From the NCBI GenBank assembly GCA_945881775.1, contig CAMCVE010000001.1, positions 63,836-127,835 of the forward strand: a stretch of DNA of 64,000 nucleotides, read 5' to 3'. A program made the position numbers and the translations under genes. Source of the DNA: Bacteriovorax stolpii (lineage in GTDB: Bacteria > Bdellovibrionota > UBA2428). Positions 6,586-20,870 of this stretch are shown one piece after another (the first letter of the stretch is position 1; each line of letters opens with the position of its first letter). A model generated the notes under the pieces. The model had not been told where the DNA came from. It searched no databases and saw only the letters and a program-made list of their open reading frames with translations.

Positions 6586-8517
6586 ATGTCAAAAACACGA
6601 CTTCTCACAAAATCTGGATTCAAGACGGCCTGCGAATGCCCTTCGAAACTTTTCTTTTCGGGCAAGAGCGACTACGCCTCTACGCGTTCGGACAACAGCT
6701 TCCTCGATGCCTTGGCCGAAGGTGGCTTTCAGGTGGGAGAGCTCGCCAAACTCTTCAATCCGGGTGGTTTGGAAATAGAGACACTCGAGAGCGAGATCGC
6801 CCTAAGCCAGTCGCGCGAGCTTCTCAATCGAGAGACGGTCACGCTTTTTGAGGCGGCCCTGGGTTTTGAAAAGCTTCTTGTGCGTGTGGACATCCTCCGC
6901 AAGGTCGGCCATCGCGTGGACCTTGTCGAAGTCAAAGCCAAAGGTTTTGACTCCACCGAGAGCAATCTTTTTTGGAACAAAAAGAACAAGGGTCTCATGT
7001 CTCGTTGGGAGCCCTACCTTCTTGATGTCGCCTTCCAGACCTACGTCGCTCAAAAAGCTTTTCCCGAGTGGGAAATAAGCCCCTACCTCATGCTCGCAGA
7101 CAAGCACGCCGTCACGAGCGTCGAAGGCCTGAACCAGTTTTTTGAACTCACGAAAGATGCGACGGGTAAATCCCGAGCCTCGCTTTCCCCGGGGCGCAGC
7201 CTCGCCGATGCCGGCGCCCCCATCCTCAAAGAGGTCGATGTCTCGGCTGAAGTGAATTTCATCCACCGTGAGTGGGAATCCCACGGTAAAAGTTTTGAAG
7301 AACTTGTTGAGTGGCTTGCCGAAGCCTATGCCGAGGACCGTTACCTTCCGGTGGGACTTGGCTCGAAATGCAAGAACTGCGAATTCCGCGTCGAGACCCA
7401 GTCCCCTGCGAAGGGACAAAAAATCGGATTTGAAAAATGTTGGTCCGAGCAAGCGAGTCTGAAGCCTGAGGACTTTAGTCGTCCTTTTGTTTTTGACATC
7501 TGGAAGTACCGTTTGGCTGACAAGAAAATTTCCGAAGGGATTTTTTTCCAGGATCAACTTGACCCCGCAGAATTCGGATCTGTGGACGCCGACCAAGCCG
7601 GTATGCAGTCGTGGCAACGGCAGGCCTTGCAAGTGCGCAAGGTGATCGAAAAGGATACGACTCCCTATATCGACAAGCAGGGACTTCTCGATGACTTTTC
7701 AAGATGGATCTATCCTCTGCATTTTATTGATTTCGAAACGAGCCAGGTGGCAATCCCCTTCGGGAAAGGGCGTCATCCCTACGAGCAAGTCGCTTTCCAG
7801 TTTTCGCATCACCGCCTCGAAGCCGACGGGCGCATCTCTCACGCCACCGAGTACATTGACCTCAGCCGCGGTAAGTTCCCAAGTTTTGATTTCGTACGCG
7901 CTCTCCGCCGGGCCCTGAGCGAAGATCGCGGCAGTATCTTCCGCTACTCTCCTCACGAGAACGTTGTGCTCTGCCAGATTCATGAGCAGCTCCTGGCGTC
8001 CGAGGAACCAGATCGCAAAGAACTTTGCCAGTGGATTGAAACTGTAACGACCAAGAAAGATGCGTGGAAGGGACCCCGCAGCATGGTTGATCTTTTAGAG
8101 GTCGTCATGAATCGCTATTACAACCCGCTCACGGACGGATCAAACTCACTTAAGAGCGTTCTTCCCGCTGTGCTCACGAGCTCCAAATATCTTCAGAGGA
8201 AATATTCTCAACCCATCTATGGGGCCGCAGAGAGCCTCACAAGTCACAACTACAAGGACTGGACTTGGATCCAGCGAAACGCGAGCGGCAAGATTCTCGA
8301 CCCGTATTCGCTGCTTGGAGAAAATGAAATCCGCGAAGGGGGCGCCGCCATGACGGCTTACGCCCGCACTCAATTTGCTTCGATGCCCGAGAGTGAGCGC
8401 GCTAAGCTCGCTCGGTCACTTCTGAGATACTGCGAACTCGACACCTTCGCGATGGTGCTCGTCTACGAACACCTAGCCGATGAAATCGGCTGGTGGAACA
8501 GAGCTACTGACACTTAA
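6586..8517 (+). CDS. DUF2779-like protein: N-terminal Cas4/RecB-like PD-(D/E)XK nuclease with 4 Cys, C-terminal DnaQ-like DFET segment
   Basis: N-terminus (LLTKSGFKTACECPS) resembles DUF2779/Cas4 N-termini. A D...EVK nuclease triad candidate is present (RVDIL...VDLVEVKAK), together with a CxC plus CxxC cysteine set. Downstream there is an IDFETSQ motif and a second acidic block. Confidence 0.55.
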   Translation: MSKTRLLTKSGFKTACECPSKLFFSGKSDYASTRSDNSFLDALAEGGFQVGELAKLFNPGGLEIETLESEIALSQSRELLNRETVTLFEAALGFEKLLVRVDILRKVGHRVDLVEVKAKGFDSTESNLFWNKKNKGLMSRWEPYLLDVAFQTYVAQKAFPEWEISPYLMLADKHAVTSVEGLNQFFELTKDATGKSRASLSPGRSLADAGAPILKEVDVSAEVNFIHREWESHGKSFEELVEWLAEAYAEDRYLPVGLGSKCKNCEFRVETQSPAKGQKIGFEKCWSEQASLKPEDFSRPFVFDIWKYRLADKKISEGIFFQDQLDPAEFGSVDADQAGMQSWQRQALQVRKVIEKDTTPYIDKQGLLDDFSRWIYPLHFIDFETSQVAIPFGKGRHPYEQVAFQFSHHRLEADGRISHATEYIDLSRGKFPSFDFVRALRRALSEDRGSIFRYSPHENVVLCQIHEQLLASEEPDRKELCQWIETVTTKKDAWKGPRSMVDLLEVVMNRYYNPLTDGSNSLKSVLPAVLTSSKYLQRKYSQPIYGAAESLTSHNYKDWTWIQRNASGKILDPYSLLGENEIREGGAAMTAYARTQFASMPESERAKLARSLLRYCELDTFAMVLVYEHLADEIGWWNRATDT

Positions 8518-8531
8518 TACGCACCAAAACG

Positions 8532-9029
8532 CTATTCGCGGAAATTGCCGAACTGCATCGGAATGCCCAGCTTGGATTCTTGGCCCTTAAGAAGCGCAAT
8601 CGCGTCCTGGAGCTCATCGCGACTCTTGCTCGTGACGCGGACTTTCTCGTCCTGAATCTGAGCCTGGAGCTTGCCCGCGTTCTGCTTCAAAAACGCGACG
8701 ATCTCTTTGCCCTTTTCCTTCGAAACACCGGCGGCCACCTTGGCGACCATGCGGCCACCAGAACCGCTGGCTTTTTCGACAGGTTGGTAGTCCAGAGCCA
8801 ACAAAGAGATGCCCCGTTTGGTGAGCTTCTGATGGAAGGTCTCTTGGATCGCCTCCATCTTGTACGACTCGGAGCAAGTGATCTTGATGCTCTTCTCTTT
8901 TTGGTCCATGACGATCTCGGCCTGGATACCTTTGAAATCGTAGCGGTTACGAATCTCTTTGAGGGTCTGATTGATGGCGTCATCCATGGACTGCCAGTTA
9001 ATTTCGGAGCTCACGTCAAAAGAAGGCAT
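8532..9029 (-). CDS. yajQ: YajQ family cyclic-di-GMP-binding protein (UPF0234)
   Basis: It starts MPSFDVSSEINWQ, which matches the characteristic YajQ N-terminus. Length is about 165 aa. The track ORF extends 12 codons further upstream. Confidence 0.85.
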   Translation of the reverse strand: MPSFDVSSEINWQSMDDAINQTLKEIRNRYDFKGIQAEIVMDQKEKSIKITCSESYKMEAIQETFHQKLTKRGISLLALDYQPVEKASGSGGRMVAKVAAGVSKEKGKEIVAFLKQNAGKLQAQIQDEKVRVTSKSRDELQDAIALLKGQESKLGIPMQFGNFRE

Positions 9030-9130
9030 GCCTCTGAAATAGAACAAGAGGCTTGGGGGGGTCAAGCGCCCGGAGACTCTTCAAAGATCGGTGGGCAGAC
9101 CCGCAAAAAGAAGATAGAATCTGAAGCAAC

Positions 9131-9670
9131 ATGAGATTTCATCACCTTGCCCTTGCCCTCACGACTCTATTTGCCTCAATCTCACACGCCGCAAACGTCA
9201 AAGTCGGCGACAACGCTCCACTCTTCAAAGTTAAAAAACAAGACGGAAGCGACTTCGACCTCGCCAGCCGAAAAGGCAGCTGGACAGTGCTTTATTTCTA
9301 TCCCAAAGCTGGAACTCCAGGCTGCACCAAACAGGCTTGCGCGTTCCGCGACAACATCAAGAAAGTTCGTGCCGCCGGTGCTGAGGTTTACGGCATCAGC
9401 TCCGATACCGTCGCCGCTCAAGCCGCTTTTCACAAAGAGCATAAGCTGAGCTTCGATTTGCTGGCAGATCCCGATGACAAAGCGCTGAACGCCTACGGAA
9501 CAAAAATTATGGGCCTCAGCTTTTCGAAGCGTTGGACGTTTATCATCGATCCCGAGCTCAAGATTCGCTCGATCGACAAGGACGTCGATCCTGCCTTGGA
9601 CGCTGTCCGCGTCGCAGCCAAAGTGACCGAACTGCGCGCGGCTTCGGTCCCAAACGCTCCAACATTTTGA
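9131..9670 (+). CDS. bcp: periplasmic peroxiredoxin, Bcp-type (AhpC/TSA family)
   Basis: Signal peptide followed by a thioredoxin-fold peroxiredoxin carrying the peroxidatic Cys motif (PKAGTPGCTKQAC). Confidence 0.85.
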   Translation: MRFHHLALALTTLFASISHAANVKVGDNAPLFKVKKQDGSDFDLASRKGSWTVLYFYPKAGTPGCTKQACAFRDNIKKVRAAGAEVYGISSDTVAAQAAFHKEHKLSFDLLADPDDKALNAYGTKIMGLSFSKRWTFIIDPELKIRSIDKDVDPALDAVRVAAKVTELRAASVPNAPTF

Positions 9671-9683
9671 AGCAAAGCTTTTG

Positions 9684-10898
9684 CTAGAACTGAACACTCA
9701 AGCGTGCGGCCACGTCGTACTCTTGATCTCCGAGGCGAAGCTCGCCGTCTAAGTCACCAAAGTGCCAACTGACGCTCGGCTCAAACTGCAGATCCTGCAT
9801 GAGTTCAAACGCAACTCCAAGTTTCGAGAGGCCACTCGAGTCATTTAAATTAACGAGGTTCAGCAGACTGATCGTGGTGTGATTCCACGATCCTGGAGTC
9901 GGAGCAAAAATCGAAAAGAGCGCGTAGTCTCTGGCGAGCTGATAGGGTGTGTAAGCGCCCGCCGCAAGTGCCCAGACGTAGTCCGATTTCGCCTGATAGC
10001 CATCGTCGTTTCGGAAATACTCCACAGCGAAACTCAGGCTGTCATTGTCCGCGTAAGGCAGCTCATAACTAGCCCCGGCGACCCAGTCGAAGTTCGCGCC
10101 TTCAGGCACATAAGCTCCCGTCTGTCCAAAGAGCGTCGAGTTGGAACGGCTCGAATAAGCGAGCTCTGAATAAACATCAAAGTCGCCAAGAGCGGCAGAG
10201 AGATCCATTCCAAAAACAGCTTTTTGCCCTTGGAGTTTGGAGGCCGTGACTGCGAACTCGGCAGAACTCACAGGAATTTCAAGACGCAAAGAATTCCCGA
10301 CTTCGCTCAGCCGATCGGCACCTTCGAAGGAATTGACATAATAGAGATTGGCACTTCCGAGCGGCACATGTGTCTTAAGGATCGACACGCCCGAGCGGCG
10401 ATCATCCGAGTACAAGAGATCGCGAGGCGCAGCATTGACCACATCCGTCGGATTCCAGAACTTGCCACTGCCCCATTTAATCTTCTGCTTTCCGAGTGTG
10501 AAGAAGACGTCCTTGCTGGCATTAAAAAACAACTTCAACTCTTCGACGTCCGACGTCGAAGCCGGAACCGCAAGCTGCCCCGCATCTGACACACCTTCGA
10601 CCACGCCACGAAATTTTGCATAGGCCCGAATGTCGTTTCTCAGCCTGGCATCCAAGTAGACCGAGAGCGTATTGAGATTCCTGAGATAGTCGCGCGCTCC
10701 GACGACCGAATCATAAAAATCTACAGCAAGTGTGCCGCCGAGCTTGAGTCGATCTTCATCGGCGCCCGACTTTTCCTCAGCGCTAATGCCCTGTTCAGCG
10801 CCGAATCCTTTCTCAAATTCGTCGGAGGAGTCCTGCGCATAGAGCGGTAGAGCCATGAAAAGCGAAAAAACCAATGCAAAGTTATCAAATTTTCTCAT
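9684..10898 (-). CDS. outer-membrane beta-barrel protein, unknown family; last gene of the ABC/LolA-like cluster
   Basis: Signal peptide (MRKFDNFALVFSLFMALPLYA-QD). The length of about 400 aa is rich in alternating aromatic and polar residues. The C-terminal sequence ...RLSVQF ends in Phe, the usual BAM recognition signature. The start was chosen at the second Met; the track start is 10928. Confidence 0.5.
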   Translation of the reverse strand: MRKFDNFALVFSLFMALPLYAQDSSDEFEKGFGAEQGISAEEKSGADEDRLKLGGTLAVDFYDSVVGARDYLRNLNTLSVYLDARLRNDIRAYAKFRGVVEGVSDAGQLAVPASTSDVEELKLFFNASKDVFFTLGKQKIKWGSGKFWNPTDVVNAAPRDLLYSDDRRSGVSILKTHVPLGSANLYYVNSFEGADRLSEVGNSLRLEIPVSSAEFAVTASKLQGQKAVFGMDLSAALGDFDVYSELAYSSRSNSTLFGQTGAYVPEGANFDWVAGASYELPYADNDSLSFAVEYFRNDDGYQAKSDYVWALAAGAYTPYQLARDYALFSIFAPTPGSWNHTTISLLNLVNLNDSSGLSKLGVAFELMQDLQFEPSVSWHFGDLDGELRLGDQEYDVAARLSVQF

Positions 10899-10903
10899 AC
10901 ATA

Positions 10904-11680
10904 TCACTTGCTCTTGGATTCGATCCAAGCCTTGCTAAAAATGTTGGTGTCGAGAGATGAGAGATCGGTCTCCTTGATCAAGATGACAGTGGAATTTCCT
11001 TTCTCGATCTCATCAAAAATCCGCATCTCCTCGGGGATCCAGACATTGGCCTTTTTGGAGGGGCTAAATTTCTTGGTCCACTTTGGATAGAACGTCGTGC
11101 GCATCAGCTTGCCCGAGAGTGACGACTCTTCACGCTTAAGCACGTTCTTGTCGAGCTGATCCACCCACAGCGAAATCACGGGGTAGGCCACATCGGATTT
11201 AGGCTTCGCAACAAGTTTCATCTTGTGCGTCTTGAAATTGCCGAGCGTGCCCTCACCCTCGTAAGTGACGTCGTACTCATCGGCAAGCCGAGACTCATCG
11301 AAATCTCCGCGCCGCGAATTGGTGCCACCAATGCGCTCACGCTCAGTCCGACGCTCCCATTTCCCTGTCGAGGGATCGTACATCCACAGGTTCTTGTCGA
11401 TCTTAAGGTACCCTTTGCCCGCCTCTTCTTTGGGCTTCGTAAAAAGAATCATAAACTTGTCGTCGGTGTCACGACGATAGACCACAGCCTGAAAGACTTT
11501 AGGCTCGAGTTTGCGCTCGGTCTCTTTGACATAGCAGAGAGACGTGTAGTCACCCGAATTGCGCTGTCTCTCGTCGACAAGCTTTACAAGATCAAGGGCC
11601 TCTTGGGGTTTAAGAGGTACGGCCTGCACCGCTCCAGCCAGAAATATTGCGATAAGAATGAGTACTTTCATAGACATCAA
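10904..11680 (-). CDS. LolA-like outer-membrane lipoprotein-sorting family protein (periplasmic)
   Basis: Signal peptide (MKVLILIAIFLAGAVQA) and a soluble domain of about 230 aa. Size and composition resemble the LolA-like superfamily proteins that sit next to FtsX ABC transporters. Family assignment is from memory, not a search. Confidence 0.55.
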   Translation of the reverse strand: MMSMKVLILIAIFLAGAVQAVPLKPQEALDLVKLVDERQRNSGDYTSLCYVKETERKLEPKVFQAVVYRRDTDDKFMILFTKPKEEAGKGYLKIDKNLWMYDPSTGKWERRTERERIGGTNSRRGDFDESRLADEYDVTYEGEGTLGNFKTHKMKLVAKPKSDVAYPVISLWVDQLDKNVLKREESSLSGKLMRTTFYPKWTKKFSPSKKANVWIPEEMRIFDEIEKGNSTVILIKETDLSSLDTNIFSKAWIESKSK

Positions 11681-11687
11681 AGATCTC

Positions 11688-13046
11688 CTAGTTCACGTGG
11701 TTGATCGCGGTGATGGGCTTCATTTTGCTGGCTCGGTAGGCAGGAATAAAAGCCCCCAAGATCAATAACACAGACAGCGTCGTAAACGTTATGAGAAGGT
11801 CCGAAGCTTGAAGGTCGAGCCAAAGAGAATTGGACATCAGGAACATCACAAAGGCTTCGGAGCTAATCTGAACATCAATCAGATTCAAAAGGCCCACAAT
11901 TCCCGATCCGATGAGGATTCCTGCACCGACACTCATCACCGCCAAGAGGCACGATTCGATGAGGAACATCACCAAGACCCCGCGTCGTTGCAGACCAAGA
12001 GCCCGCATCGTTCCGATTTCAGGTGTGCGCTCACGAATCGACATCCACATGTTGTTCACGAGACCAACGGTTACAATAAACATCAGCGTGGCCGTAAGCG
12101 CTACGGTGAGCGCATTGAAAATATCGAGGATCCATTTGAGGAACGAGGTCTCGTCCTGCCAGTCTGTCACATCGAGCTTTTGGCCGGACCATGACTCACC
12201 CGCAACGCGCTCGAATTTCATCCAAAAAGGGTTGGCATCCTTCTCCATGAGGGCATAAGAAGCCGCCGAAAGCCCCTTGCGCAATCTGTCATCTACTGCA
12301 GAAACCTGATCGATAGACTTCAAGTAGATCTGGAAAACACCGGTCGTATCCGGATCGAGATCGTAAACCTCTCGTGCATCGAGATGGTTAATAAATGTCG
12401 TGAAACTTGAGATGAGACCGAGATTCTTTAGGATGGCAGCAACCCGAAGATCCTTAGTGTTGTAGATGTTGCGGTAGGTGGGCATCGAAATGGTGACGGT
12501 GTCGCCTACTCGCACCTTGAGCTTCTTAGCCTGCGAAGCAAACATCACAATGCTTCCCTGCTGGGCTAGGTCCATCATGCGACCCGGGAGCTCAGGCTTG
12601 GCATCCGATGCAAGATCACCTTCGATGTAATCACCTCTCTCTGCAAGCGCGAGCCCTCCGAGCAAAGTCTCTTCCTTGGCCATATCGATGCCCGACATCG
12701 GGACCATGATCGAGTTCTCATCCGAAATAATTTTTCCGTAAGCACGCACGCGCTCAACAACAAGCGTTGCCTCAGGAACAGTCTCTGCGATGAGAGTACG
12801 AAGCTTTGAAGCGCGATTGATCACGGGAGCCGCTGAAGACTGACTGATTTTTAGAAAACCACCCACGTTGAGGTGACCTGTCGAAAGCGCTGTCGCATTC
12901 TCGATCATGCGATTGCGAATTCCCGCCGTCAGAGCGAGCATCACCACAACCAAGGTGGTTACGAGCGCGATCGCGCCTCCCAGAACGAGGCTTCGCCCGC
13001 TGTGGCTTGTGAGGTTGCGAAAAGCGATCACAAAAAATTGTCTCAT
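11688..13046 (-). CDS. ABC transporter permease, FtsX/MacB-like (1 TM, periplasmic domain, 3 TM)
   Basis: N-terminus MRQFFVIAFRNLTSH... is typical of FtsX-family permeases, and the C-terminus has three TM helices. There is an SD (AAGAAGGG) upstream of the ATG at 13046. Confidence 0.8.
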   Translation of the reverse strand: MRQFFVIAFRNLTSHSGRSLVLGGAIALVTTLVVVMLALTAGIRNRMIENATALSTGHLNVGGFLKISQSSAAPVINRASKLRTLIAETVPEATLVVERVRAYGKIISDENSIMVPMSGIDMAKEETLLGGLALAERGDYIEGDLASDAKPELPGRMMDLAQQGSIVMFASQAKKLKVRVGDTVTISMPTYRNIYNTKDLRVAAILKNLGLISSFTTFINHLDAREVYDLDPDTTGVFQIYLKSIDQVSAVDDRLRKGLSAASYALMEKDANPFWMKFERVAGESWSGQKLDVTDWQDETSFLKWILDIFNALTVALTATLMFIVTVGLVNNMWMSIRERTPEIGTMRALGLQRRGVLVMFLIESCLLAVMSVGAGILIGSGIVGLLNLIDVQISSEAFVMFLMSNSLWLDLQASDLLITFTTLSVLLILGAFIPAYRASKMKPITAINHVN

Positions 13047-13060
13047 CAGAGAGGCCCTTC

Positions 13061-15148
13061 TTATTCACTGGACTGCATCGCTTCGAGCGGTGAGATTTTC
13101 ATCGCACGCCAAGCGGGGTACTGAGTCGAAACCAAAGCCACAATCGTCATACACAGTGACACAATCGCAATATGCATAATATTGACCTGAAGGTAGAGTC
13201 GATCTCCCGAGAAAAAGAAGGTGGCAACGTCGCCCATCGCGGGAATGCCACGAGCGCCGACGGCCAGCACGATACCAACGCCAATGAGCGTACCCACAAG
13301 ACCAAAAACAAAACTCAAGACAAATGTTTCGCGCAGAAAGAGTCCAAGCAGGAAAGAGCGTTGAGCTCCGATGGCGCGCATCGTCCCGATTTCCCGACGA
13401 CGCTCGAGAGTCGCCATCAGCATCGAATTCATAATGATAAACGTTGCGACGCTAAAGATGACAAAAACAAAGAGATACAAGACTCCGCGTACCATTACAG
13501 TCAGTTGACCCACGATGCCCGCAGAGTCGCGCCAGTCGGCGGCCTGAAGTCCGAGTTTTTTCTCATCATTTTTTGCTCGAATCTCTTCGAGGGTGGCGTC
13601 TAGACGCGAGGGATCTTTTAGCACAACGGAAGCGTTCATAAACACGCCGTCTTCCATGTCTGAGCGTGAGTATTTGGTGTCGAGATCGCGTCGTTCGCTG
13701 TCGACCTGACCGAAGCGACCCTGGGTTAGGCTCTGCAAATTGCTCGTGACTCGAGTTTCTGAGGTCGACTCTGTCGCCGCTCCAAACATCGCCTCAATAT
13801 CGTCACGGCCCACATCACCGAGACCCATCTCCGCATCAAGACTTTCGGTTTCGCTACGACGTTCAGCCGTGAGAATCCCGAAAAGCTTGCGGAATGAGAC
13901 CATATCCATCACGTTCAGAGCACCCGCTAGCGGCGAACTTTCGAAACTTCTGAAGCGGTAAGTGCCGTAAACTTTCATGTTCACTGATGAGGAATATCCG
14001 GACTTCGTGAATCCCGTGATCGCGAAGGTGTCGCCCACTTTTACTTTATAGAGGATGAGCTGAGGAGCGATCTGATCATAAAAAAAGGTGTAACGAGTGG
14101 GGAAATTCGTGTCATCCATTGCAAGGAACTCAGACACAAGCTCGGGAAATTTTGATGACTTTGAACCCAATAGTTGCTGAAGCCTGGGCAGCAAAGTCGC
14201 CGCAGCAGGCGGCTCGATCTGACTGTAGACTTCGGCTGCCTGCGCGATATTGGCCTTTACTTTATCTTGAAGGTCTTTACTGCTTTTAAGAGTGAGCTTC
14301 TCTTTATCAATCTGCTTTTTGATTTGATCGAGACGACGCGCGACTCGGTGCTTGACCTGGTTTTCGTAAACAAAATCACTAAATAAAAAGCCTCGGCCCC
14401 CTTCAGGGATCATCGTCCCTTTGACGACTTCAAACTGCGGAAAGGCTTCCTCAAAAAGCTCTGGAACTGTGCCGAAGTAGCTCAGGTAGAGTTGGTTGTC
14501 ATCGAAGATAAGCGGCGCCATCTTGTTCGCCAGAAATTCGAGACGGGCGTCGCTGTGCCGATCGAAGTCATTCCAGAATGACTGATCCAGGGCCTTAGCG
14601 ATATTCTCACCGGCGTCCTTGAAGAGTTTCTCACCCCCGAAGACACCTCCGAGATTGTCCTGATTCTCGGTCTGACTTCGTTCAATATCGCGCACAATCA
14701 TGCGCACATGTTCTTTTAGGGCAGCGAGGCGCGCGTCATCGCGCGGTGTCTTCTTGTAGGACGCCCGCAATTCTTCGAGCTTGAGGTCCAGGAGATTTCC
14801 GGGATTGAGCATCGCGAAACTAATACCCATTGGAATGACGGCTTTGATATTGGGAATTTCTAAAAGTGCAGTCTTAACTTTTTTGAAATCAGGCAGGTAA
14901 CCAATGTCGGGGAGGTTCCCATCGCTTCCACCAAGGACGGCGATCTTCTCTTTCGCGTCGGCGGCGTAGACCTGGATGTCGCCCGTAAGACTGTTGGTGA
15001 GACTTTTTTGCATGCCACCTGAAATCGCATCGACCACAGAATTGCCGACAATTGCTAGCGTCGTCCCGAAAACAATGATGAGTCCTGTGACGAGAGTCTT
15101 CAAGCGATGAACGAAAAGATTACGAAACGCGAGTTTCCAAAGAAGCAT
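13061..15148 (-). CDS. ABC transporter permease, FtsX/MacB-like with a large (about 450 aa) periplasmic domain
   Basis: N-terminus MLLWKLAFRNLFVHRL plus a TM helix, and a C-terminal FtsX three-helix bundle. At 695 aa it is unusually large for a LolC/E-like permease. Confidence 0.8.
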   Translation of the reverse strand: MLLWKLAFRNLFVHRLKTLVTGLIIVFGTTLAIVGNSVVDAISGGMQKSLTNSLTGDIQVYAADAKEKIAVLGGSDGNLPDIGYLPDFKKVKTALLEIPNIKAVIPMGISFAMLNPGNLLDLKLEELRASYKKTPRDDARLAALKEHVRMIVRDIERSQTENQDNLGGVFGGEKLFKDAGENIAKALDQSFWNDFDRHSDARLEFLANKMAPLIFDDNQLYLSYFGTVPELFEEAFPQFEVVKGTMIPEGGRGFLFSDFVYENQVKHRVARRLDQIKKQIDKEKLTLKSSKDLQDKVKANIAQAAEVYSQIEPPAAATLLPRLQQLLGSKSSKFPELVSEFLAMDDTNFPTRYTFFYDQIAPQLILYKVKVGDTFAITGFTKSGYSSSVNMKVYGTYRFRSFESSPLAGALNVMDMVSFRKLFGILTAERRSETESLDAEMGLGDVGRDDIEAMFGAATESTSETRVTSNLQSLTQGRFGQVDSERRDLDTKYSRSDMEDGVFMNASVVLKDPSRLDATLEEIRAKNDEKKLGLQAADWRDSAGIVGQLTVMVRGVLYLFVFVIFSVATFIIMNSMLMATLERRREIGTMRAIGAQRSFLLGLFLRETFVLSFVFGLVGTLIGVGIVLAVGARGIPAMGDVATFFFSGDRLYLQVNIMHIAIVSLCMTIVALVSTQYPAWRAMKISPLEAMQSSE

Positions 15149-15157
15149 TGGCTGACC

Positions 15158-15838
15158 TCAGGACTCAGCAACAATGACACCATCGCGCAGCTTGATAATG
15201 CGGTTGGCTTGACGGATCACGTTGTCATCATGAGTTGAAAAGAGAAAAGTGGTTTGCTCACTGCGGTTGATTTCTTTCATGAGGTCAATGATGCTTTGTC
15301 CCGTTACGGAATCGAGGTTGGCGGTAGGCTCGTCGGCAAGAACAATCCTTGGCTTGGTGACAAGAGCCCGAGCAATCGCAACGCGCTGACGCTGACCGCC
15401 GGAAAGTTCATTGGGCCGATGCTTCATATGATCTTGTAAGCCAACTTTCTCGATAAAATGCATCACGCGACTGCGGCGCTCCTCTTTACTGAGGTCTTTC
15501 ATCAGCAAAAGGGGAAACTCGACATTGTCATAGACATTCAGGACGGGAATCAAATTGAAAGACTGGAAGATAAATCCGATCTTGTGAAGTCGAAGATCCG
15601 TGAGCTCTCGCTCCGTAAGCTGGGCGGTGTTGGATCCCCCGACGACAACATCTCCAGAAGAGGCCACATCCACGCAACCGATGAGATTGAGAAGAGTCGT
15701 CTTGCCACTGCCCGAAGGACCCGCGATCACCGTAAACTCACCCCGATCGATACTGAGGCTGACATTCTTCAAGGCTGGGACCGTAACTTTTCCAAGATGG
15801 TATTCTTTGACGACGTTCGAAAGTTGAATGTTGTCCAT
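15158..15838 (-). CDS. ABC transporter ATP-binding protein (LolD/MacB-ATPase-like)
   Basis: Walker A (GPSGSGKTTLL), ABC signature (LSGGQRQRVAIARAL), Walker B (LADEPT) and H-loop are all present. Confidence 0.9.
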   Translation of the reverse strand: MDNIQLSNVVKEYHLGKVTVPALKNVSLSIDRGEFTVIAGPSGSGKTTLLNLIGCVDVASSGDVVVGGSNTAQLTERELTDLRLHKIGFIFQSFNLIPVLNVYDNVEFPLLLMKDLSKEERRSRVMHFIEKVGLQDHMKHRPNELSGGQRQRVAIARALVTKPRIVLADEPTANLDSVTGQSIIDLMKEINRSEQTTFLFSTHDDNVIRQANRIIKLRDGVIVAES

Positions 15839-15932
15839 GAGGCCTCATACTCGGTTTTCAGATGGCATTTGTCTATTCACCGTTGCAAGCGCCAGAAGTT
15901 CATCTCGCTACGCGTTGCAGCCATCCCTTCTC

Positions 15933-17831
15933 TTATTTGAGAGGCGCGTCTGGCTTCCAAGGAAGTCGCGCCTCGTACCATTTTCGGGAGCCAATGACCT
16001 TTGTTTGGGTCTCATCGTCAAAAACAGCCAAGCCTAATTCCAAAATTCCATACTCAATGAGAGCGAGGCTTCGTGTGCTTTTGTCGCCAAGCCTCAGATA
16101 CGCACGGAGGTCGACGTCGGAGGACTTGAGATTCAGATCCGTGAACTCGACAAGATTGGGACCCATACGAAAGTCAGTCGTGCCCCGGAGTTTCTTCATG
16201 TCAGCGAATCGCCCCACGTTTCGAGCAATACGGGAAGTGTTGGCAAGGACTGCGAGGACAGGTCTCGCATCATCGACCCCGAGACTCGAATGACCATAAA
16301 AAACGATGGGCGCGCCGAGATCGATATGAGCCTTCTCGAGGATCACCTCACCCGACCAAGGTGGTCTCGATGCCTTCTTGATCTTGTCTTCCTTGAGAAC
16401 ACGAACCCCCGAAAAAGCGAGCCTCGATCCCGAAACCTCAAACTGAGTGGCCCCTTTTGCAGTGTCTTCGATCCGTGCTTGAAACGCGAAGTCGCCTGAG
16501 AGTTGAGTCTCACGGAAGCGAGCCCGAGCCCCAATCGCCTCAACCTTACAAAATCCAACGTCCGATGGGCGCCTTGTGGAGACCTGCAACTTTGCCTCAA
16601 GTGTCGCCGTGCCCCCGAGAACTTCGAACTGCTGTGCGAGCGGGACAAAGTTGTTAATAAACCTCAAATCCGTCAAATCGACACGATCAAGAACAATGCT
16701 CGCGCTAAGATCTGAAAGTTCCGAGAACATTTTACGGATGCTCAAGTCATAGCTGTCTGCCACAATCTTGAGATCGTCGCCCTTGGCGATATCGAGTTTG
16801 TGCGCAAGATCGGACACCACATAGTGATCAATCGCGAGGTTCATACGCATCCGAGGTCGCTCATCCCGCGAATCGAGACTCCACTCCGCTCGTCCCGCGC
16901 CCTGAGCACGAAAATTCTCAGAACCCGCCCCCATCCTCTTCGCGGTGATACTTGCCGTAGAGGGATCCCGAAAAACACCGTCAGAAATATTGGCATCAAT
17001 GGAAAAATCCCCTGTCACGCCCAGAAGCCTCATCCAGGGAATGCTTTGGAAGTAGTGATTCAGGAAATCTGCTTCCTCGAGGCTTCCTTGCAAATCGACG
17101 TGCGCATTGATCTTGTCAAAAATTAGCTCCGCCTCTTCCTCCTGGGGCAGCCACTCAGACAGTTCCGAATCAATGCGACCCGAAAGCTTCGAGCTTAGAG
17201 TCCGTGTGCCGACAACGACTTTTCCGCCACCGAAATCAACGCGAGCTTCCCCGATCTCCAGGTTTCGACCGGGCCACAATCGTAGCTCACCACCGATAAA
17301 TGCCGGCCCCTGATACGAGTAATCAAACACAGAAATCTGCGTAAAATTTTTGAGAGAAATGCCATCTAAATGAATTCGGTAGGGGCCAAGCTCGGAAAGT
17401 GGAGCTTTGGGATCAACGGGAAGTCGCTCCCCGCGACGGAGCCAAAAGAGTCCGCCATCAGCCCGAACTGAGAGAGCGTGGAATCGGCGAGATAGCAGCG
17501 CAAAAAGGTCCAACATCACGTCGACCTTGGCGAGCTCAACACGCCACAAAATGGAGCCATCGTGTCCCTCGAGTTCAACGCCCCTTAGATGAATTAAGCC
17601 TGGAAACAGTGTCCAGGCTTCGGTGTAGTCGAGGCGCAGTTTCTCGGGCTGTGTGTTGATCAAAGCCGGGATCCGGTGCTCCCGGAGAACGATGTTTGCG
17701 ACGCTTACGTAGGCAATCTCAATAACAAGAAAAAGCACCGCAAAGCCTATAAGAAGCTTTTTTGTCTTTTTTGAAGCTTTCAAATGAGTTTCCGCCCGAT
17801 ATCCAGCATAGCCGGAAGCGGCGGCACACAA
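15933..17831 (-). CDS. large membrane-anchored periplasmic protein, possibly AsmA/TamB-like (DUF748-like); first transporter-linked gene of the cluster
   Basis: Basic N-terminus (KASKKTKK) followed by a single TM (LLIGFAVLFLVIEIAYV). The rest, about 600 aa, is beta-rich, repetitive and amphipathic. The track start is a TTG at 17831. An in-frame TTG at 17783 would give a classical short positive N-terminus followed by the TM helix. No clear SD precedes either candidate. Confidence 0.45.
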   Translation of the reverse strand: MCAAASGYAGYRAETHLKASKKTKKLLIGFAVLFLVIEIAYVSVANIVLREHRIPALINTQPEKLRLDYTEAWTLFPGLIHLRGVELEGHDGSILWRVELAKVDVMLDLFALLSRRFHALSVRADGGLFWLRRGERLPVDPKAPLSELGPYRIHLDGISLKNFTQISVFDYSYQGPAFIGGELRLWPGRNLEIGEARVDFGGGKVVVGTRTLSSKLSGRIDSELSEWLPQEEEAELIFDKINAHVDLQGSLEEADFLNHYFQSIPWMRLLGVTGDFSIDANISDGVFRDPSTASITAKRMGAGSENFRAQGAGRAEWSLDSRDERPRMRMNLAIDHYVVSDLAHKLDIAKGDDLKIVADSYDLSIRKMFSELSDLSASIVLDRVDLTDLRFINNFVPLAQQFEVLGGTATLEAKLQVSTRRPSDVGFCKVEAIGARARFRETQLSGDFAFQARIEDTAKGATQFEVSGSRLAFSGVRVLKEDKIKKASRPPWSGEVILEKAHIDLGAPIVFYGHSSLGVDDARPVLAVLANTSRIARNVGRFADMKKLRGTTDFRMGPNLVEFTDLNLKSSDVDLRAYLRLGDKSTRSLALIEYGILELGLAVFDDETQTKVIGSRKWYEARLPWKPDAPLK

Positions 17832-17851
17832 AAGTCTGCAAGGCTTAAGTT

Positions 17852-18724
17852 CTAATAATAGAGCTCAGGCAACTGCACGTCATCGAGATACTCGGCGGGT
17901 TTTTCACCAAAGACACGTTTGAGAACTTGGCGATCTTGGAGGCTCCACTTGAGCTTGCCGTCGAAATGCTCAAGGACATGGTCGTGAGACTTCTCCACAT
18001 CGCCATTCTTCAGAGCCATCGCATCGAGGAAATAGTCAGGATAGAAAAAATTCCAATTGAGCCCCTCGTACGCAATCACCGATTGAAATCCCGCGTCGAG
18101 AAAGTCTGGCGAGAGCGAGTTTCCAAAACAGGCCTGGAGATAAAGTCCGTCGGAATAGCGAAGCTTGCCCTTGAGGGCGCCAATATCTCGGAACGAAATC
18201 ACGCCCTGGCCGGGCGAAGAGATCAAGTGATTGGGGATGCCGTGCGCAAGAAGCATGACGTCGTAGTCTTGCTTGAGGGATTCCATTTGGCGCAAAGCCT
18301 TGAGGAAACTGTCTTTATTGAAACCGTTCCATTGAATTCGAAGGACGTAGTTGTAGGTCTTCTGAATTTTTGGGGCATAAAGCCACCAGAGGACGTTCTC
18401 GAGACGAATGTCTGATCGATTGTAGATCTTAGCGAACTCGGGCTGCAGTCTTTTTCCAACGACATCATCTGCAGCGATGAAAAGTAGATTCTTCGTGCGC
18501 TTTTGAATGATCGAAACGGTCTGACCGCGCGGACCCACCGTCGTGGTCTTGCGATAGGGTGCCATCTGAATCCATTCGGTCTTTCCGCCGGGGAGAGTTT
18601 GAATCGAAGAGACGGTCAGGGAGCTGGGCGCTTTCGGGTAGATGCAACCTTGAGCAGCTACGAGTGAAACAAGGAGAAGGGACTTAGCGAGAGCATTCTG
18701 AAGATTGAATATTTGCTCTAACAT
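17852..18724 (-). CDS. hypothetical secreted protein, probable lipoprotein
   Basis: Strong SD (AAGGAG) 7 nt upstream of the ATG at 18724. The signal peptide ends in ...LVAAQGC, which is lipobox-like. I recognise no known domain. Confidence 0.55.
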   Translation of the reverse strand: MLEQIFNLQNALAKSLLLVSLVAAQGCIYPKAPSSLTVSSIQTLPGGKTEWIQMAPYRKTTTVGPRGQTVSIIQKRTKNLLFIAADDVVGKRLQPEFAKIYNRSDIRLENVLWWLYAPKIQKTYNYVLRIQWNGFNKDSFLKALRQMESLKQDYDVMLLAHGIPNHLISSPGQGVISFRDIGALKGKLRYSDGLYLQACFGNSLSPDFLDAGFQSVIAYEGLNWNFFYPDYFLDAMALKNGDVEKSHDHVLEHFDGKLKWSLQDRQVLKRVFGEKPAEYLDDVQLPELYY

Positions 18725-18752
18725 AAATCCCTTCTCCTTATTGTTGGGACGA

Positions 18753-19334
18753 TCAGTTGTTCAGGTTGTTCAAGAGGTTCTTGCTCAGGGCATTCACAAG
18801 CGTATTGGCCTGTTCTGCGGTGAGACTGAGATTGTCTTGAGCGCGAGCGACGTAGGGAGCCAGATCACGGGCACCGATGAACTCTGCAATTTCTGAGGGT
18901 TCACGAGCGTCCACGCCAACAAGCGCGAGGTACGAAGCGATGCGGGCTTCGAGTTCCTTTTGCGAGTTGATGACTTGAAGAGCTTCCTTGAGCACGGGAG
19001 CTGCTCCGAATTGAGGGCTGACGAGAAGTTCGTTCACAGTGCCCTCGAGCACGTTGACGTTCTTCTGTTTCACTTCAGGCGAGCAAGACACTTCACCGTA
19101 GTAAGTGCCCGAGCTGTATCTGGGATCGTAGGGATAGACGGGATAAACTGGGTAAGGGTAGCCAGGACGGTAGTCGGGGTGACGGTGGTGTGGTCCGCGA
19201 TGTCCGCCGCGATGTCCGCCGCGATCACCGCCGCGTCCACCATGATCGTGCCTGTTGCCGTTGTTGTGAGCCATCGTCGTCGTGCTCAGCAACGCCGTCA
19301 GGGCCATCGTAGCCAAAACGTTAAATATTTTCAT
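18753..19334 (-). CDS. secreted low-complexity protein with a His/Gly/Arg repeat and a Pro/Tyr repeat
   Basis: Strong SD (AAGGAG) upstream of the ATG at 19334. Signal peptide is MKIFNVLATMALTALLSTTTMA. The mature N-terminus is HNNGNRHDHGGRGGDRGGHRGGHRGPHHRHPDYRPGYPYPVYPVYPYDPRY, and the C-terminal half is alpha-like. Confidence 0.6.
   Translation of the reverse strand: MKIFNVLATMALTALLSTTTMAHNNGNRHDHGGRGGDRGGHRGGHRGPHHRHPDYRPGYPYPVYPVYPYDPRYSSGTYYGEVSCSPEVKQKNVNVLEGTVNELLVSPQFGAAPVLKEALQVINSQKELEARIASYLALVGVDAREPSEIAEFIGARDLAPYVARAQDNLSLTAEQANTLVNALSKNLLNNLNN
19195..19242. repeat. 12-nt imperfect tandem repeat (about 4 units) inside the His-rich secreted protein gene
   Basis: CCGCGATGTCCG occurs twice, followed by CCGCGATCACCG and CCGCGTCCACCA. 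On the minus strand these encode the HRGG/DRGG repeats. Confidence 0.5.
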
Positions 19335-19401
19335 AGGATCTCCTTTTCCTTCGCAGGCTAATAGATTGTCCTGCGGACCTTGGTCAATTAGATTCCCAGT
19401 T

Positions 19402-20136
19402 GTGACAACAACTTCATGGGCTCCCTCAGTGGTCTATACGTTCTTTCAAACACTTGGAGCTCTCACCTTCGCTCTTGGACTGCTGTACTTTCTGCGACAT
19501 TATTTTTCGCTGAAAGCACGTATTGGACTTCTGCTCACCTCAAGTGTGCTGGTGAACCTCTTTGCTGAAACCGTTTCTTCATTCGCTGGGGGCTTCGAGG
19601 GAAAAAGTTATTTCGGTGCCCTGGGCGCGCAGATCCTTGGACTTGCGGTCTTCTTGCGTCTCAATAAAACAGACCCCGTAGCGCGTGCGCGCGTATGGTC
19701 GCTCTTTGGAGTTCTATCTGGACTCGTCTACGCCCTCCTACGAATCGGTTGTCATTTCCGCGGTTGCTGCTGGGGACGCATCTGCCCGTACCCGTGGGCC
19801 ACATTTTATAAGAGCACCGAAGTGGTGACTCCCTGGCTCTTTTTGCCTCTGCATCCCGCACAGCTCTACTCGGCCTTCCACGGGATTATCGTGGCAGTTT
19901 TTGTCGCGTTGGAGATGCGCCGCTCGGGTTATCGCTATAGTTCCCAAAATCCAGAATACGCCTTGGGTCTTTTTCTCGTGCTGATGGGCATGGGACGCCT
20001 CATCACAGATTATTTCCGAGCAGACGCAGCCTTCTACAAACAGTCCTGGCTCGGCTTGGACCCAAATACAATTCTTGCCAGTCTCGCCGCCTTCGGAGGT
20101 GCTGTAATTCTGTCTCGTTCGCGACACAGAATCTAA
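19402..20136 (+). CDS. lgt: prolipoprotein diacylglyceryl transferase, divergent (Cys-rich signature region)
   Basis: From memory it aligns to E. coli Lgt over its whole length: HPAQLYSAFHGIIVAVFVAL versus HPSQLYELLLEGVVLF, GLFLVLMGMGRLITDYFRAD versus [21 protein letters not shown], and RIGCHFRGCCWGRI in place of RLGNFINGELWGRV. I chose an in-frame GTG start at 19402. The track start at 19282 would overlap the divergent neighbour. Confidence 0.65.
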   Translation: MTTTSWAPSVVYTFFQTLGALTFALGLLYFLRHYFSLKARIGLLLTSSVLVNLFAETVSSFAGGFEGKSYFGALGAQILGLAVFLRLNKTDPVARARVWSLFGVLSGLVYALLRIGCHFRGCCWGRICPYPWATFYKSTEVVTPWLFLPLHPAQLYSAFHGIIVAVFVALEMRRSGYRYSSQNPEYALGLFLVLMGMGRLITDYFRADAAFYKQSWLGLDPNTILASLAAFGGAVILSRSRHRI

Positions 20137-20609
20137 GGAACTCTCGCCGCACTCGTGTGCAGCAACCCTTCCCACATGTCGAAGGTTTCTGGACTCAGCT
20201 CGATCACGACAAGGTCTGGGTCCGATGGCCCTTGTGGAAACCATGGGAGCAAGTCGTCTCCCCAGAGGGACCCAAGCAACTCAGTGTTGCGACGCAAACA
20301 GGCCGAAGCTCTCAGAGCCGAGAAGTGAAGTCTGTTTGGGAAGTGAAAACTTAGAGTCACATTTAAATGCTCCCTGTCTCCGAAGGACTTCCGAATGGGA
20401 TCGTTGCTCAAAAAGTAGATTCGTCCCTCTTCATCCACCTCGCGCACCGACATCGGACGGGTGTGCAATTGACCTTCAGGGTCGAACACAGTCAGCATCC
20501 CGACGTCGCCCCGCTGTATCTCAAAACGAAGCGCAGAACCGATATCGACTGGGAGCGCCTCCGAACGTTCTCGGATACCTTCTTGAGTTGTTTCACAAAT
20601 CTTTGTCAT
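20133..20609 (-). CDS. pyridoxamine 5'-phosphate oxidase-like FMN-binding split-barrel protein (general stress protein 26-like)
   Basis: About 158 aa with the pattern typical of the Pyridox_oxidase_2 family. A strong SD (AGGAGG) lies upstream of the ATG at 20609. Confidence 0.65.
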   Translation of the reverse strand: MTKICETTQEGIRERSEALPVDIGSALRFEIQRGDVGMLTVFDPEGQLHTRPMSVREVDEEGRIYFLSNDPIRKSFGDREHLNVTLSFHFPNRLHFSALRASACLRRNTELLGSLWGDDLLPWFPQGPSDPDLVVIELSPETFDMWEGLLHTSAARVP

Positions 20610-20764
20610 GCGACCCTCCTAACCCCATCAAGGGCTGCGAAAGCTGTGCCACTTGAGGCGGGGGCCCCTTACCCCAAACCCAGTCGCAGTGTGCGCTTTG
20701 AGTAAAAAAACCCCATCTGTAATCAACAGCTCCCAGAAGGGCCGATAAATTTAAATTTCATGAA

Positions 20765-20788
20765 AACAAAGTTCCTTAAAACTTTGTT
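20765..20788. promoter_or_regulatory. 9-bp perfect inverted repeat AACAAAGTT-N6-AACTTTGTT in the xdhC-downstream / PNPOx-upstream intergenic region
   Basis: Perfect IR with a 6-nt spacer, next to an AT-rich palindrome AAATTTAAATTT (20747-20758). It is the only AT-rich patch in the 260-bp GC-rich gap. It could be a terminator of the xdh operon or an operator. Confidence 0.3.
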
Positions 20789-20870
20789 CTTGGACTGACC
20801 GTCTCCGGAGCGGCTGCGAGTCGCCCTCACCGACGACTCCCTCTCCTAATCTGGTCGCGCTTTCTCGCAT

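Follow-up and report, generated by a model that had tools for sequence, protein, structure and literature searches.

A conserved five-gene module of an ABC transporter, a LolA-like carrier, and an outer-membrane barrel: a candidate exporter of hydrophobic substrates

The window, a 64,000-nucleotide stretch of Bacteriovorax stolpii DNA, contains a cluster of eight ORFs that all lie on the minus strand. The cluster begins with a 193-aa secreted protein that has a His/Gly/Arg-rich stretch and Pro/Tyr repeats (18753–19334), a 290-aa lipoprotein-like protein (17852–18724), and a 632-aa N-terminally anchored protein (15933–17831). These are followed by a 226-aa ABC ATPase (15158–15838), a long FtsX-type permease of 695 aa (13061–15148), a short FtsX-type permease of 452 aa (11688–13046), a LolA-like protein of 258 aa (10904–11680, likely start ATG 11677), and an outer-membrane β-barrel. 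An lgt-like gene lies divergently on the plus strand (19282–20136), with its real start probably near 19429. The gaps from the 193-aa gene to the LolA-like gene are 28, 20, 94, 9, 14, and 7 nt, and a Shine–Dalgarno sequence (AAGGAG or TAGGAG) precedes the 193-aa, 290-aa, and LolA-like genes. The barrel ORF, called by the ORF finder as 414 aa from TTG 10928 (9684–10928), overlaps the LolA-like gene by 25 nt; from the likely ATG at 10898 (MRKFDN..., 9684–10898), the gap is 5 nt. The coordinates, spacing, Shine–Dalgarno sites, and gross features of the original prediction were all verified. Its proposal that the eight genes form a single unit did not hold, as the conserved unit consists of the five genes at 9684–15838.

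The ATPase matches Pfam ABC_tran (2e-33). It scores 235.7 bits against the NCBIfam LolD model, under the cut-off of 307.75, and the DevA, DarD, FtsE, and MacB models score about the same. The nearest solved chains are MJ0796, YtrE, and LolD. The long permease has one transmembrane helix, a periplasmic domain of ~500 aa, and three further transmembrane helices, with hydrophobic segments at residues 16–34, 555–573, 600–631, and 655–673. Its Pfam match is FtsX only (residues 559–687), and MacB_PCD is not matched in Pfam. The closest solved chain is LolC, but the alignments with LolC, LolF, LolE, or MacB cover only the C-terminal ~160 aa. The short permease matches both FtsX (2e-16) and MacB_PCD (5.3e-6) in Pfam. 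Its nearest solved chains, aligned over the C-terminal domain only, are Spr0695 (5xu1), YtrF, and MacB, all ranking above LolE. Against the NCBIfam lolCE model, with a cut-off of 362 bits, the long and short permeases score 77.8 and 56 bits, respectively. These family matches place the anticipated Lol-like transporter and its permease pair in the type VII/MacB superfamily.

The LolA-like protein belongs to PF17131 ("TP_0789-like"; 3.8e-37, 128 bits vs. a cut-off of 30) and does not match the LolA family proper in Pfam. In the PDB, it matches 3buu (NE2245), a member of the LolA superfamily (2e-8). It carries a signal peptide without a cysteine, in agreement with the predicted periplasmic location, and a lipobox is missing in 117 of 119 full-length orthologues, indicating that the carrier is soluble. 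The domains expected from the sequence (ABC_tran, FtsX, MacB_PCD, and LolA_like) were thus all recovered by Pfam. The last protein of the cluster has a signal peptide, the expected C-terminal Phe, and a predicted 18-stranded outer-membrane β-barrel fold, and its family has no Pfam model. The best structural matches are the uptake channels ChiP and Occ/OprD. A conserved internal loop with the motif KWGSGKFWNPTD is probably a substrate or partner site.

The order ATPase, long FtsX (~700 aa), short FtsX (~450 aa), PF17131 protein, and barrel is strictly conserved. Of 60 related loci in Bdellovibrionota, Oligoflexia/Silvanigrellales, and Myxococcota whose upstream DNA is long enough for the test, 59 keep it, and it is identical in metagenome contigs. 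Such conservation of gene neighbourhood is far beyond chance. The long permease retains its full length in all module loci, and the ATPase (62–87% identity across related loci) and the LolA-like protein (50–79%) are among the best-conserved module proteins. A four-gene variant is carried on plasmids of Vibrio, Plesiomonas, Aliiroseovarius, and Burkholderia/Paraburkholderia. It is composed of an ATPase, a single FtsX/MacB_PCD permease, a PF17131 protein, and a 404–480-aa protein without a Pfam match. In hhalign comparisons of the Vibrio, Plesiomonas, Aliiroseovarius, and Burkholderia variants, the last protein is remotely homologous to the barrel (80–94% probability, E 1e-5 to 1e-7), and the alignments span the conserved motif. 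As had been predicted, neither a membrane-fusion protein (HlyD) nor a TolC/OEP gene is present among the scanned ORFs of the window (roughly 1–51 kb). The genes conserved in the module flanks of other loci include neither.

The other genes are neighbours of the module by local genome history. In tblastn searches of 80 genome loci, no homologue of the 632-aa, 290-aa, 193-aa, or lgt-like genes was found near the module, while the arrangement is kept in one close relative (L088), whose 632-aa protein is 85% identical. The 632-aa family is very small, with eight homologues found, and those with 52–54% identity in relatives stand apart from the module. In another relative (L007), the 632-aa homologue directly adjoins bcp–yajQ, the genes that flank the module here. 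The module is absent, so it represents an insertion or a deletion at that junction. L007 also lacks the 290-aa/193-aa/lgt-like block and the PNPOx/xdh block beyond.

The predicted structure of the 632-aa protein (pLDDT 76.9, a moderate confidence) is composed of one N-terminal transmembrane helix and unbroken long β-strands, and LPD-3/BLTP1 is its sole significant Foldseek match. The proposed AsmA/TamB-like character is therefore plausible as a fold, an anchored β-groove of the AsmA/TamB/BLTP type. The sequence, however, matches no Pfam family, including the AsmA clan, and the protein has no part in the module. AsmA-like, TamB, and BLTP proteins share the N-terminal anchor followed by a long continuous β-sheet, although TamB and YhdP are much longer. 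With just 94 nt between it and the ATPase gene and a shared orientation, the 632-aa gene may be co-transcribed with the module in this lineage. The 290-aa protein has the N-terminal sequence ...LVSLVAAQGC and no Pfam or NCBIfam match; among related loci, tblastn matched it only in L088, where a gene comparable in size and location is present. The 193-aa protein likewise has no family match in Pfam or NCBIfam, and its gene was not found beside the module elsewhere.

The divergent neighbour predicted to be lgt matches Pfam LGT (1.7e-19) but reaches only 30 bits against the lgt equivalog TIGR00544 (cut-off 118.9), and no solved Lgt was matched in the PDB at E ≤ 1. It is a highly divergent Lgt-family paralogue. 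A 235-aa homologue is present in L088, and the gene is missing from all other module loci. The low score and the lack of a match to solved Lgt make it poor evidence for the lipoprotein theme that it had been taken to support.

The module is frequently accompanied by regulators in other lineages. In 21 of 55 loci, the gene immediately upstream encodes a MarR-family regulator, PadR or XRE regulators are upstream in other carriers, and plasmid variants are followed by a histidine kinase and LytTR or by OmpR-type two-component genes. The Burkholderia and Paraburkholderia copies end type I PKS/aminotransferase or P450/PPTase/lipase clusters. Such regulators and biosynthetic neighbours speak for an accessory exporter that is inducible and handles hydrophobic compounds, and less for core lipoprotein sorting, the theme first proposed. 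No regulator adjoins the module in the Bdellovibrionota loci, including this window, so inducibility would be an extrapolation from other lineages. The absence of the module from the syntenic site in L007, together with the regulators elsewhere, makes the system look accessory and inducible, not housekeeping.

We consider it somewhat more probable than the converse (about 0.55) that the five-gene operon at 9684–15838 works as a unit, in which an ABC pump, a LolA-like carrier, and a dedicated barrel export a hydrophobic substrate. Judged from sequence and predicted folds, the module probably carries a greasy compound to the surface of the cell. Type VII ABC transporters work from the periplasmic side, by mechanotransmission. 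Two ATPases and a heterodimer of the 695-aa and 452-aa permeases would form such a transporter of the MacB/LolCDE superfamily. Motion of the large periplasmic domains, powered by ATP, would pull the substrate, which may be hydrophobic or amphipathic, off the inner membrane's outer face or out of the periplasm. The substrate would be passed to the soluble PF17131 carrier and brought to the 18-stranded barrel, which would insert it into the outer membrane or release it across. We infer the direction and the substrate from the behaviour of type VII ABC transporters and LolA-fold proteins elsewhere, and the carrier hand-off is likewise putative. The PKS/P450 placement in Burkholderia/Paraburkholderia and the pairing of LolA-superfamily proteins with apolar-compound exporters, as in AmeABCD (PMC6394551) and the MMPL operons of Porphyromonas and Prevotella (PMC10434189), suggest a hydrophobic substrate, with a lipid or a lipophilic metabolite as the likeliest kind.

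An alternative or housekeeping lipoprotein-sorting route is unlikely. A LolCDE-like transporter would deliver lipoproteins to the LolA-like chaperone and on to the barrel, which would stand in for the missing LolB as an outer-membrane insertase or surface flippase. In NCBIfam, the ATPase indeed scores best against LolD and both permeases against lolCE, the permease pair resembles LolC/LolE, LolC is the nearest solved chain of the long permease (LolE ranks lower for the short one), and the carrier is in the LolA superfamily. A comparable in silico model has been published for Borrelia BBJ23–29 (PMC13078400). However, the Lol equivalog scores are far under their cut-offs (56–78 vs. 362 and 236 vs. 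308 bits), the LolC/E similarity is confined to the generic C-terminal FtsX domain, and the carrier is of PF17131, not the LolA family. The frequent MarR/two-component control or placement in PKS/P450 clusters is unlike an essential pathway, the module is absent from the L007 site, and the lgt-like paralogue is unlinked elsewhere.

Uptake is less probable still. Since the barrel most resembles uptake channels, import is conceivable: the porin-like barrel would admit a hydrophobic nutrient or prey lipid, the LolA-like protein would bind it, and the ABC transporter would take it into or through the inner membrane. To our knowledge, however, the type VII transporters MacB, LolCDE, FtsEX, and BceAB have no transmembrane substrate path, and a position at the end of biosynthetic clusters suits export. 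The carrier lineages in Bdellovibrionota and Myxococcota are mostly predatory or scavenging, and DUF1302/DUF1329 genes affect the fitness of Pseudomonas putida on fatty esters (bioRxiv 10.1101/2020.07.04.188060), both in line with uptake. That all eight genes and lgt form one envelope-spanning lipid or lipoprotein machine, with the 632-aa protein as periplasmic bridge, is highly improbable: the tight same-strand spacing, the L088 arrangement, and a fold like that of lipid-bridge proteins speak for it, but the 80 module loci without these neighbours, the 632-aa homologues without the module, and the blocks missing from L007 speak against it.

The five-gene exporter can be compared with several known systems. 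Like MacAB–TolC, it has a MacB-like ATPase and an FtsX-type permease whose periplasmic core domain resembles that of MacB. The two are unfused in the module, where the LolA-like carrier and the porin-like barrel stand in for the MacA/HlyD adaptor and TolC. With LolCDE–LolA(–LolB), it has in common a type VII transporter whose ATPase is a separate protein and whose FtsX-type permeases come as a heterodimeric pair. Both systems also use a soluble carrier of LolA-superfamily fold in the periplasm and lack a membrane-fusion protein. As originally suggested, it is distinct from the canonical system: all three transporter proteins fall far short of the Lol equivalog cut-offs, one permease has the ~500-aa periplasmic domain, the carrier is of PF17131, and the outer-membrane acceptor is an integral barrel instead of the lipoprotein LolB. 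The carrier and barrel genes also share an operon with those of the transporter, and the module is accessory and often under MarR or two-component systems.

Operons of Porphyromonas/Prevotella place an MMPL exporter beside hypothetical proteins and an "outer membrane lipoprotein-sorting protein" (PMC10434189), a name also given to PF17131 members. Their engine is an MMPL/RND transporter with two ABC ATPases, and the operon is strongly inducible under a dedicated TetR repressor (PMC10434189).

The closest analogues are the Borrelia BBJ23–BBJ29 cluster and AmeABCD. The former, described computationally in 2026 (PMC13078400), has by that description a homodimeric permease where the module has a heterodimer, an Omp85-type (BamA/TamA-like) barrel, and two TPR chaperones. 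AmeABCD of Castellaniella defragrans pairs a LolA-superfamily protein with an exporter of apolar compounds, the monoterpenes (PMC6394551). Its engine and that of the Pseudomonas DUF1302/DUF1329/BNR/RND clusters is RND (HAE3) instead of ABC, and their DUF1302 barrel and DUF1329 carrier families matched none of the proteins here in Pfam. Nevertheless, these systems, linked to monoterpenes and fatty esters, combine an inner-membrane transporter, a LolA-superfamily protein, and a dedicated outer-membrane barrel without a membrane-fusion protein or TolC, as does the module.

The conserved core of the cluster consists of five minus-strand genes at 9684–15838. In order of transcription, they encode a 226-residue ATPase (15158–15838), a long FtsX-type permease of 695 residues (13061–15148), a short permease of 452 residues (11688–13046), a LolA-like carrier of 258 residues (10904–11680), and an outer-membrane β-barrel (414-residue ORF, 9684–10928). 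Together, the products make up a type VII ABC transporter whose two permeases differ, along with a soluble LolA-superfamily protein and an integral 18-stranded barrel. Three further minus-strand genes, for proteins of 632 (15933–17831), 290 (17852–18724), and 193 residues (18753–19334), lie upstream, and an lgt-like gene (19282–20136, plus strand) diverges from them.

All eight minus-strand ORFs are located where the original prediction placed them. From the 193-residue protein to the carrier, they are separated by 28, 20, 94, 9, 14, and 7 nt; the final gap is 5 nt with the barrel starting at ATG 10898, whereas the mechanical ORF start, TTG 10928, overlaps the carrier gene. The three Shine-Dalgarno sites, AAGGAG or TAGGAG, precede the genes for the 193-residue, 290-residue, and LolA-like proteins. 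The flanks are unrelated; one contains yajQ/DUF520 and bcp, and the other a PNPOx-like gene, xdhC, and xanthine dehydrogenase. The ORFs scanned over the remaining window, to ~51 kb, are housekeeping genes, and no gene for a membrane-fusion protein (MFP), TolC, LolA, or an additional FtsX protein was found among them. ORFs of 879, 190, 302, 347, and 336 residues have no Pfam match at 1e-4; sizeable ORFs of this kind lie in 42222–45430 (+), 40516–41424 (−), 35748–36791 (+), and 25646–26656 (−). A promoter scan of 9000–20800 did not exceed shuffled expectation, and promoter and terminator scans of this range gave no useful site at the module boundaries. The GC content is 0.512 in the module and 0.544 in the window. 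Neither base composition nor GC3 shows a sign of recent horizontal transfer, and visual inspection revealed no repeats at the module insertion junction.

The ATPase matches ABC_tran, and the long and short permeases match FtsX at 1.6e-19 and 2e-16, respectively, with MacB_PCD present in the short permease only. Together with the LolA_like match of the carrier, these are among the Pfam families that had been expected. Both permeases display a 1+3 transmembrane pattern, in which TM1 and a periplasmic domain are combined with the three-TM C-terminal domain of FtsX, and their PDB matches are LolC/E/F, MacB, YtrF, and Spr0695. These features, with the cognate MacB/LolD-type ATPase, define a transporter of the type VII (MacB/FtsX) superfamily. 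Identity with canonical LolCDE is ruled out by NCBIfam/TIGRFAM equivalog scores far under the cut-offs, and also by the carrier family. The permeases score 77.8 and 56.2 bits on lolCE (TIGR02212; cut-off 362.45), and the ATPase scores 235.7 on LolD (TIGR02211; cut-off 307.75), with the DevA, DarD, FtsE, and MacB models scoring nearly as high. The HlyD and OEP families of a MacAB-TolC type tripartite pump are absent from the 39 ORFs scanned between the start of the window and about 51 kb, and MarR is the only conserved flanking family in 55 loci. This upholds the predicted absence of MFP and TolC from the locus, although a TolC may be encoded elsewhere in the genome. The long permease contains a periplasmic domain of ~500 residues (~45–545; 13061–15148, minus strand) that lacks a MacB_PCD match in Pfam and apparently contains charged, helix-rich inserts. 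Its length is kept in all module loci. This insert might replace an adaptor.

The carrier belongs to PF17131, named LolA_like, or TP_0789-like in the newer Pfam release. The match (3.8e-37; 128.1 bits against a gathering threshold of 30) spans profile positions 2–183 of 184 and is the only one in Pfam; the LolA family proper (PF03548) is not matched at E ≤ 0.1. The sole PDB relative is NE2245 (3buu) rather than E. coli LolA. Like 117 of 119 orthologues, the carrier bears a signal peptide but lacks a lipobox.

The barrel was modeled with AF2 from an alignment of 49 homologues, and the model is confident (pLDDT 88.5, pTM 0.81). It contains 18 transmembrane strands, a disordered acidic stretch at the N terminus, and a C-terminal Phe. 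The signal peptide, the closed antiparallel barrel, and the aromatic C-terminal residue place the protein among 18-stranded porin-like outer-membrane barrels of the Occ/OprD, ChiP, AlgE, and Wzi class. Neither the barrel nor the 632-, 290-, and 193-residue proteins match any Pfam or NCBIfam family, even at E ≤ 10, and the barrel family profile finds only noise among PDB sequences, with no solved chain matched. An exhaustive profile search at E ≤ 1e-3 yielded 4349 clusters (50% identity), 827 of them with E ≤ 1e-30; the family is thus large, and it lacks a Pfam model.

The most conserved element of the barrel is TxGKQKIKWGSGKFWNPTD, with invariant G146, W152, G153, P160, and D162; the conserved loop carries KWGSGKFWNPTD. 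A segment of 32 residues without a strand joins strands 5 and 6; it holds the motif and is modeled with a pLDDT of about 89–94. By barrel topology, this segment would be the third extracellular loop. In porins, the third extracellular loop folds into the lumen. Residues ~33–60 of the 414-residue ORF form an acidic disordered periplasmic stretch with an FEKGFG motif conserved in the family consensus. This stretch is a candidate docking peptide for either the carrier or a permease. Barrel relatives also occur without ABC and carrier genes, at 10001–12163 of locus L005 and 10001–11191 of locus L025, so the family is not exclusive to the module. Many relatives bear N-terminal extensions of 100–270 residues without a Pfam domain, or with SH3_3 in one case. 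No fusion to a LolA-like domain was found in the long relatives (615–720 residues), one of which carries an SH3_3 domain.

Scanning one genome for each GTDB species identified 260 loci with a barrel relative, of which 80 were retrieved and searched by tblastn with all window proteins. The order ATPase, long FtsX, short FtsX, PF17131 protein, and barrel, on the same strand, is found in 59 of the 60 loci whose sequence reaches 5.4 kb or further upstream of the barrel, L025 being the single exception. Truncated loci contain matching partial gene sets. The ABC, carrier, and barrel parts co-occur obligately in module loci. The carriers of the module include members of Bdellovibrionota, Oligoflexia/Silvanigrellales, and Myxococcota, the last including Anaeromyxobacter oryzae, Archangium minus, and a Myxococcaceae isolate. 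The order is also present in loci L002, L004, and L088, and three metagenome contexts agree. Identities are 62–87% for the ATPase, 50–79% for the carrier, 32–75% for the permeases, and 30–57% for the barrel. No homologue of the 632-, 290-, or 193-residue proteins or of the lgt-like gene was found within 10 kb in the tblastn-searched loci. The original prediction was right about a core of Lol-like ABC transporter, LolA-like protein, and outer-membrane barrel, but its eight-gene operon is rejected on synteny; the conserved unit comprises five genes.

Two observations concern individual loci. L004 is a long-read metagenome contig in which the genes for the ATPase and the two permeases (4978–9211) are split into many short called genes and the carrier and barrel are intact; this may reflect assembly frameshifts or a decaying copy. 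Five metagenome-assembled genomes titled Klebsiella pneumoniae, Klebsiella sp., or Enterobacterales (L028, L029, L046, L059, and L068) contain the module with a MarR gene ahead. These group with 'Proteobacteria' and Myxococcota-type metagenomic loci, and their labels look unreliable.

A MarR-family regulator lies immediately upstream of the module in 21 of 55 loci, and PadR or XRE regulators are found upstream in two more. The best 120 of 3912 matches in the carrier homologue search are all close orthologues, so distant contexts came instead from a plasmid collection. A tblastn search of PLSDB with the carrier gave 16 records, of which four intact annotated cases were examined, with one more in Paraburkholderia. 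All five have a four-gene variant in the order ATPase, one FtsX/MacB_PCD permease, PF17131 protein, and a Pfam-less hypothetical protein of 404–480 residues. The variant is followed by a histidine kinase and LytTR or OmpR-type pair in Vibrio sp. HDW18, Plesiomonas shigelloides, and Aliiroseovarius crassostreae. On plasmid p1 of Burkholderia sp. FERM BP-3421, it stands at the end of a type I PKS/aminotransferase/dehydrogenase cluster, and in Paraburkholderia ginsengisoli at the end of a P450/PPTase/lipase cluster. The hypothetical proteins of the first four strains are remote barrel homologues (hhalign probability 80–94%, E 1e-5 to 1e-7), and their alignments cross the GKxxxxWGxGxxxxPxD region. 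The trio of type VII ABC transporter, PF17131 protein, and barrel thus recurs well beyond the phylum of the window, with one or two permease genes.

The 632-residue protein has only eight detectable homologues. One, in locus L006 (52% identity), lies amid unrelated genes. Another, in locus L007 (52% identity), directly adjoins bcp and yajQ, which flank the module in the window, and has upstream of it SNF2, DEAD, DEAD, and ydcZ, the genes found at 26.7–33.5 kb of the window. Positions 8532–33527 of the window thus run collinear with L007, apart from two blocks. The first is the five-gene module, between bcp and the 632-residue gene; the second, of ~9 kb, holds the 290-residue, 193-residue, lgt-like, and PNPOx-like genes, xdhC, and xanthine dehydrogenase. 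Among the loci examined, the full arrangement is common only to the close relative L088, whose 632-residue homologue is 85% identical. Judged from gene order, the 632-, 290-, 193-residue, and lgt-like genes appear to be neighbours by local history.

The AF2 model of the 632-residue protein, from a 9-sequence alignment (pLDDT 76.9), contains a transmembrane helix at residues 21–50 followed by about 30 long strands. In PDB libraries, Foldseek gave a single significant match to it, LPD-3/BLTP1, a bridge-like lipid transfer protein (E 3.5e-5, probability 0.97). The match makes the proposed AsmA/TamB-like nature plausible at the level of the predicted fold, but neither the protein nor five homologues match the AsmA clan (AsmA, TamB, YhdP, DUF748) in Pfam at E ≤ 10, and the protein is not tied to the module.

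The lgt-like protein scores 70.6 bits on Pfam LGT, only 30 on TIGR00544 (cut-off 118.9), and 37.9 on PRK00052 (cut-off 334), and solved Lgt is not matched in the PDB at E ≤ 1. It is a divergent Lgt-family member or paralogue, not a demonstrable lgt orthologue, and gives little footing to the lipoprotein theme earlier drawn from it. The protein has a Cys-rich stretch, RIGCHFRGCCWGR, at a position where canonical Lgt carries the conserved R-x-G-N-F-x-N-x-E-x-x-G motif; it is perhaps a paralogue whose activity differs. The gene probably starts near 19429, since the L088 homologue has 235 residues. The secreted 193-residue protein (18753–19334, minus strand) contains a His/Gly/Arg-rich stretch, HDHGGRGGDRGGHRGGHRGPHHRH, which might bind metal, followed by PYPVYPVYPY repeats. 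Neither this protein nor the lipoprotein-like 290-residue protein has a family match, or a homologue in the fetched loci except the close relative.

By analogy with MacB/LolCDE-type transporters, the ABC transporter would extract a hydrophobic substrate at the periplasmic face. As in systems with LolA-fold proteins, it would then load the carrier, which would unload the substrate at the barrel. A bolder reading, to which we assign a probability of about 45%, is a distinct and widespread envelope route from an ABC extractor through a PF17131 shuttle to its own 18-stranded barrel, acting as insertase or exit pore, without MFP/TolC, LolB, or a periplasmic bridge. The module would then be a portable cassette reused across lineages for stress-induced or biosynthetic-cluster-linked export of a lipid or lipophilic metabolite. 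In our main reading, which is slightly more likely than not, the transporter, carrier, and barrel handle a lipid, lipophilic metabolite, or xenobiotic and are not a bulk lipoprotein-sorting device, because the module is accessory and regulated, with biosynthetic neighbours. The same features make a LolB-independent lipoprotein pathway unlikely, though the Lol-like transporter and LolA-like carrier would suit one. Uptake via a porin-like channel, which would agree with the class of the barrel, is highly doubtful. An eight-gene machine, for which the tight spacing in the window speaks, is very improbable given the synteny.

To our knowledge, hydrophobic passage over the periplasm and outer membrane is understood for few systems, namely Lol, Lpt, Mla, AsmA-like bridges, and tripartite pumps. 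The core described here belongs to type VII ABC-based envelope trafficking, and it defines a large family of barrels for which Pfam has no model. The module, in which an ABC engine is combined with a LolA-like shuttle and a dedicated integral barrel, is strictly conserved and occurs in Bdellovibrionota, Myxococcota, and Alpha-, Beta-, and Gammaproteobacteria, including cultured, genetically tractable strains. Among the cultured carriers are Anaeromyxobacter oryzae Red232, Archangium minus Cbm 6, Hyalangium minutum, Vibrio sp. HDW18, and Plesiomonas shigelloides. No experimental work on it was found in the literature. The module is a testable candidate for LolB-independent delivery to the outer membrane and for export of lipidic natural products, for instance by the Burkholderia sp. 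FERM BP-3421 copy that is linked to a PKS.

Related parts appear in other systems. AmeABCD and the DUF1302/DUF1329/RND clusters each have an RND transporter for apolar compounds that is served by a dedicated barrel together with a LolA-superfamily protein (PMC6394551; bioRxiv 10.1101/2020.07.04.188060). In Bacteroidota, an 'outer membrane lipoprotein-sorting protein', the label of PF17131 members, accompanies MMPL exporters (PMC10434189). Treponema pallidum TP0789, the source of the newer PF17131 name, is an abundant predicted lipoprotein, and TP0786, three locus numbers away, is an ABC transporter (PMC5015957). The module differs from canonical LolCDE/LolA in its low equivalog scores and carrier family, and from MacAB-TolC in having no adaptor and no TolC gene at the locus. 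Its closest published analogue is Borrelia BBJ23-29, described computationally only, in which a MacB-like ABC transporter is combined with a LolA-like protein and an Omp85-type barrel (PMC13078400).
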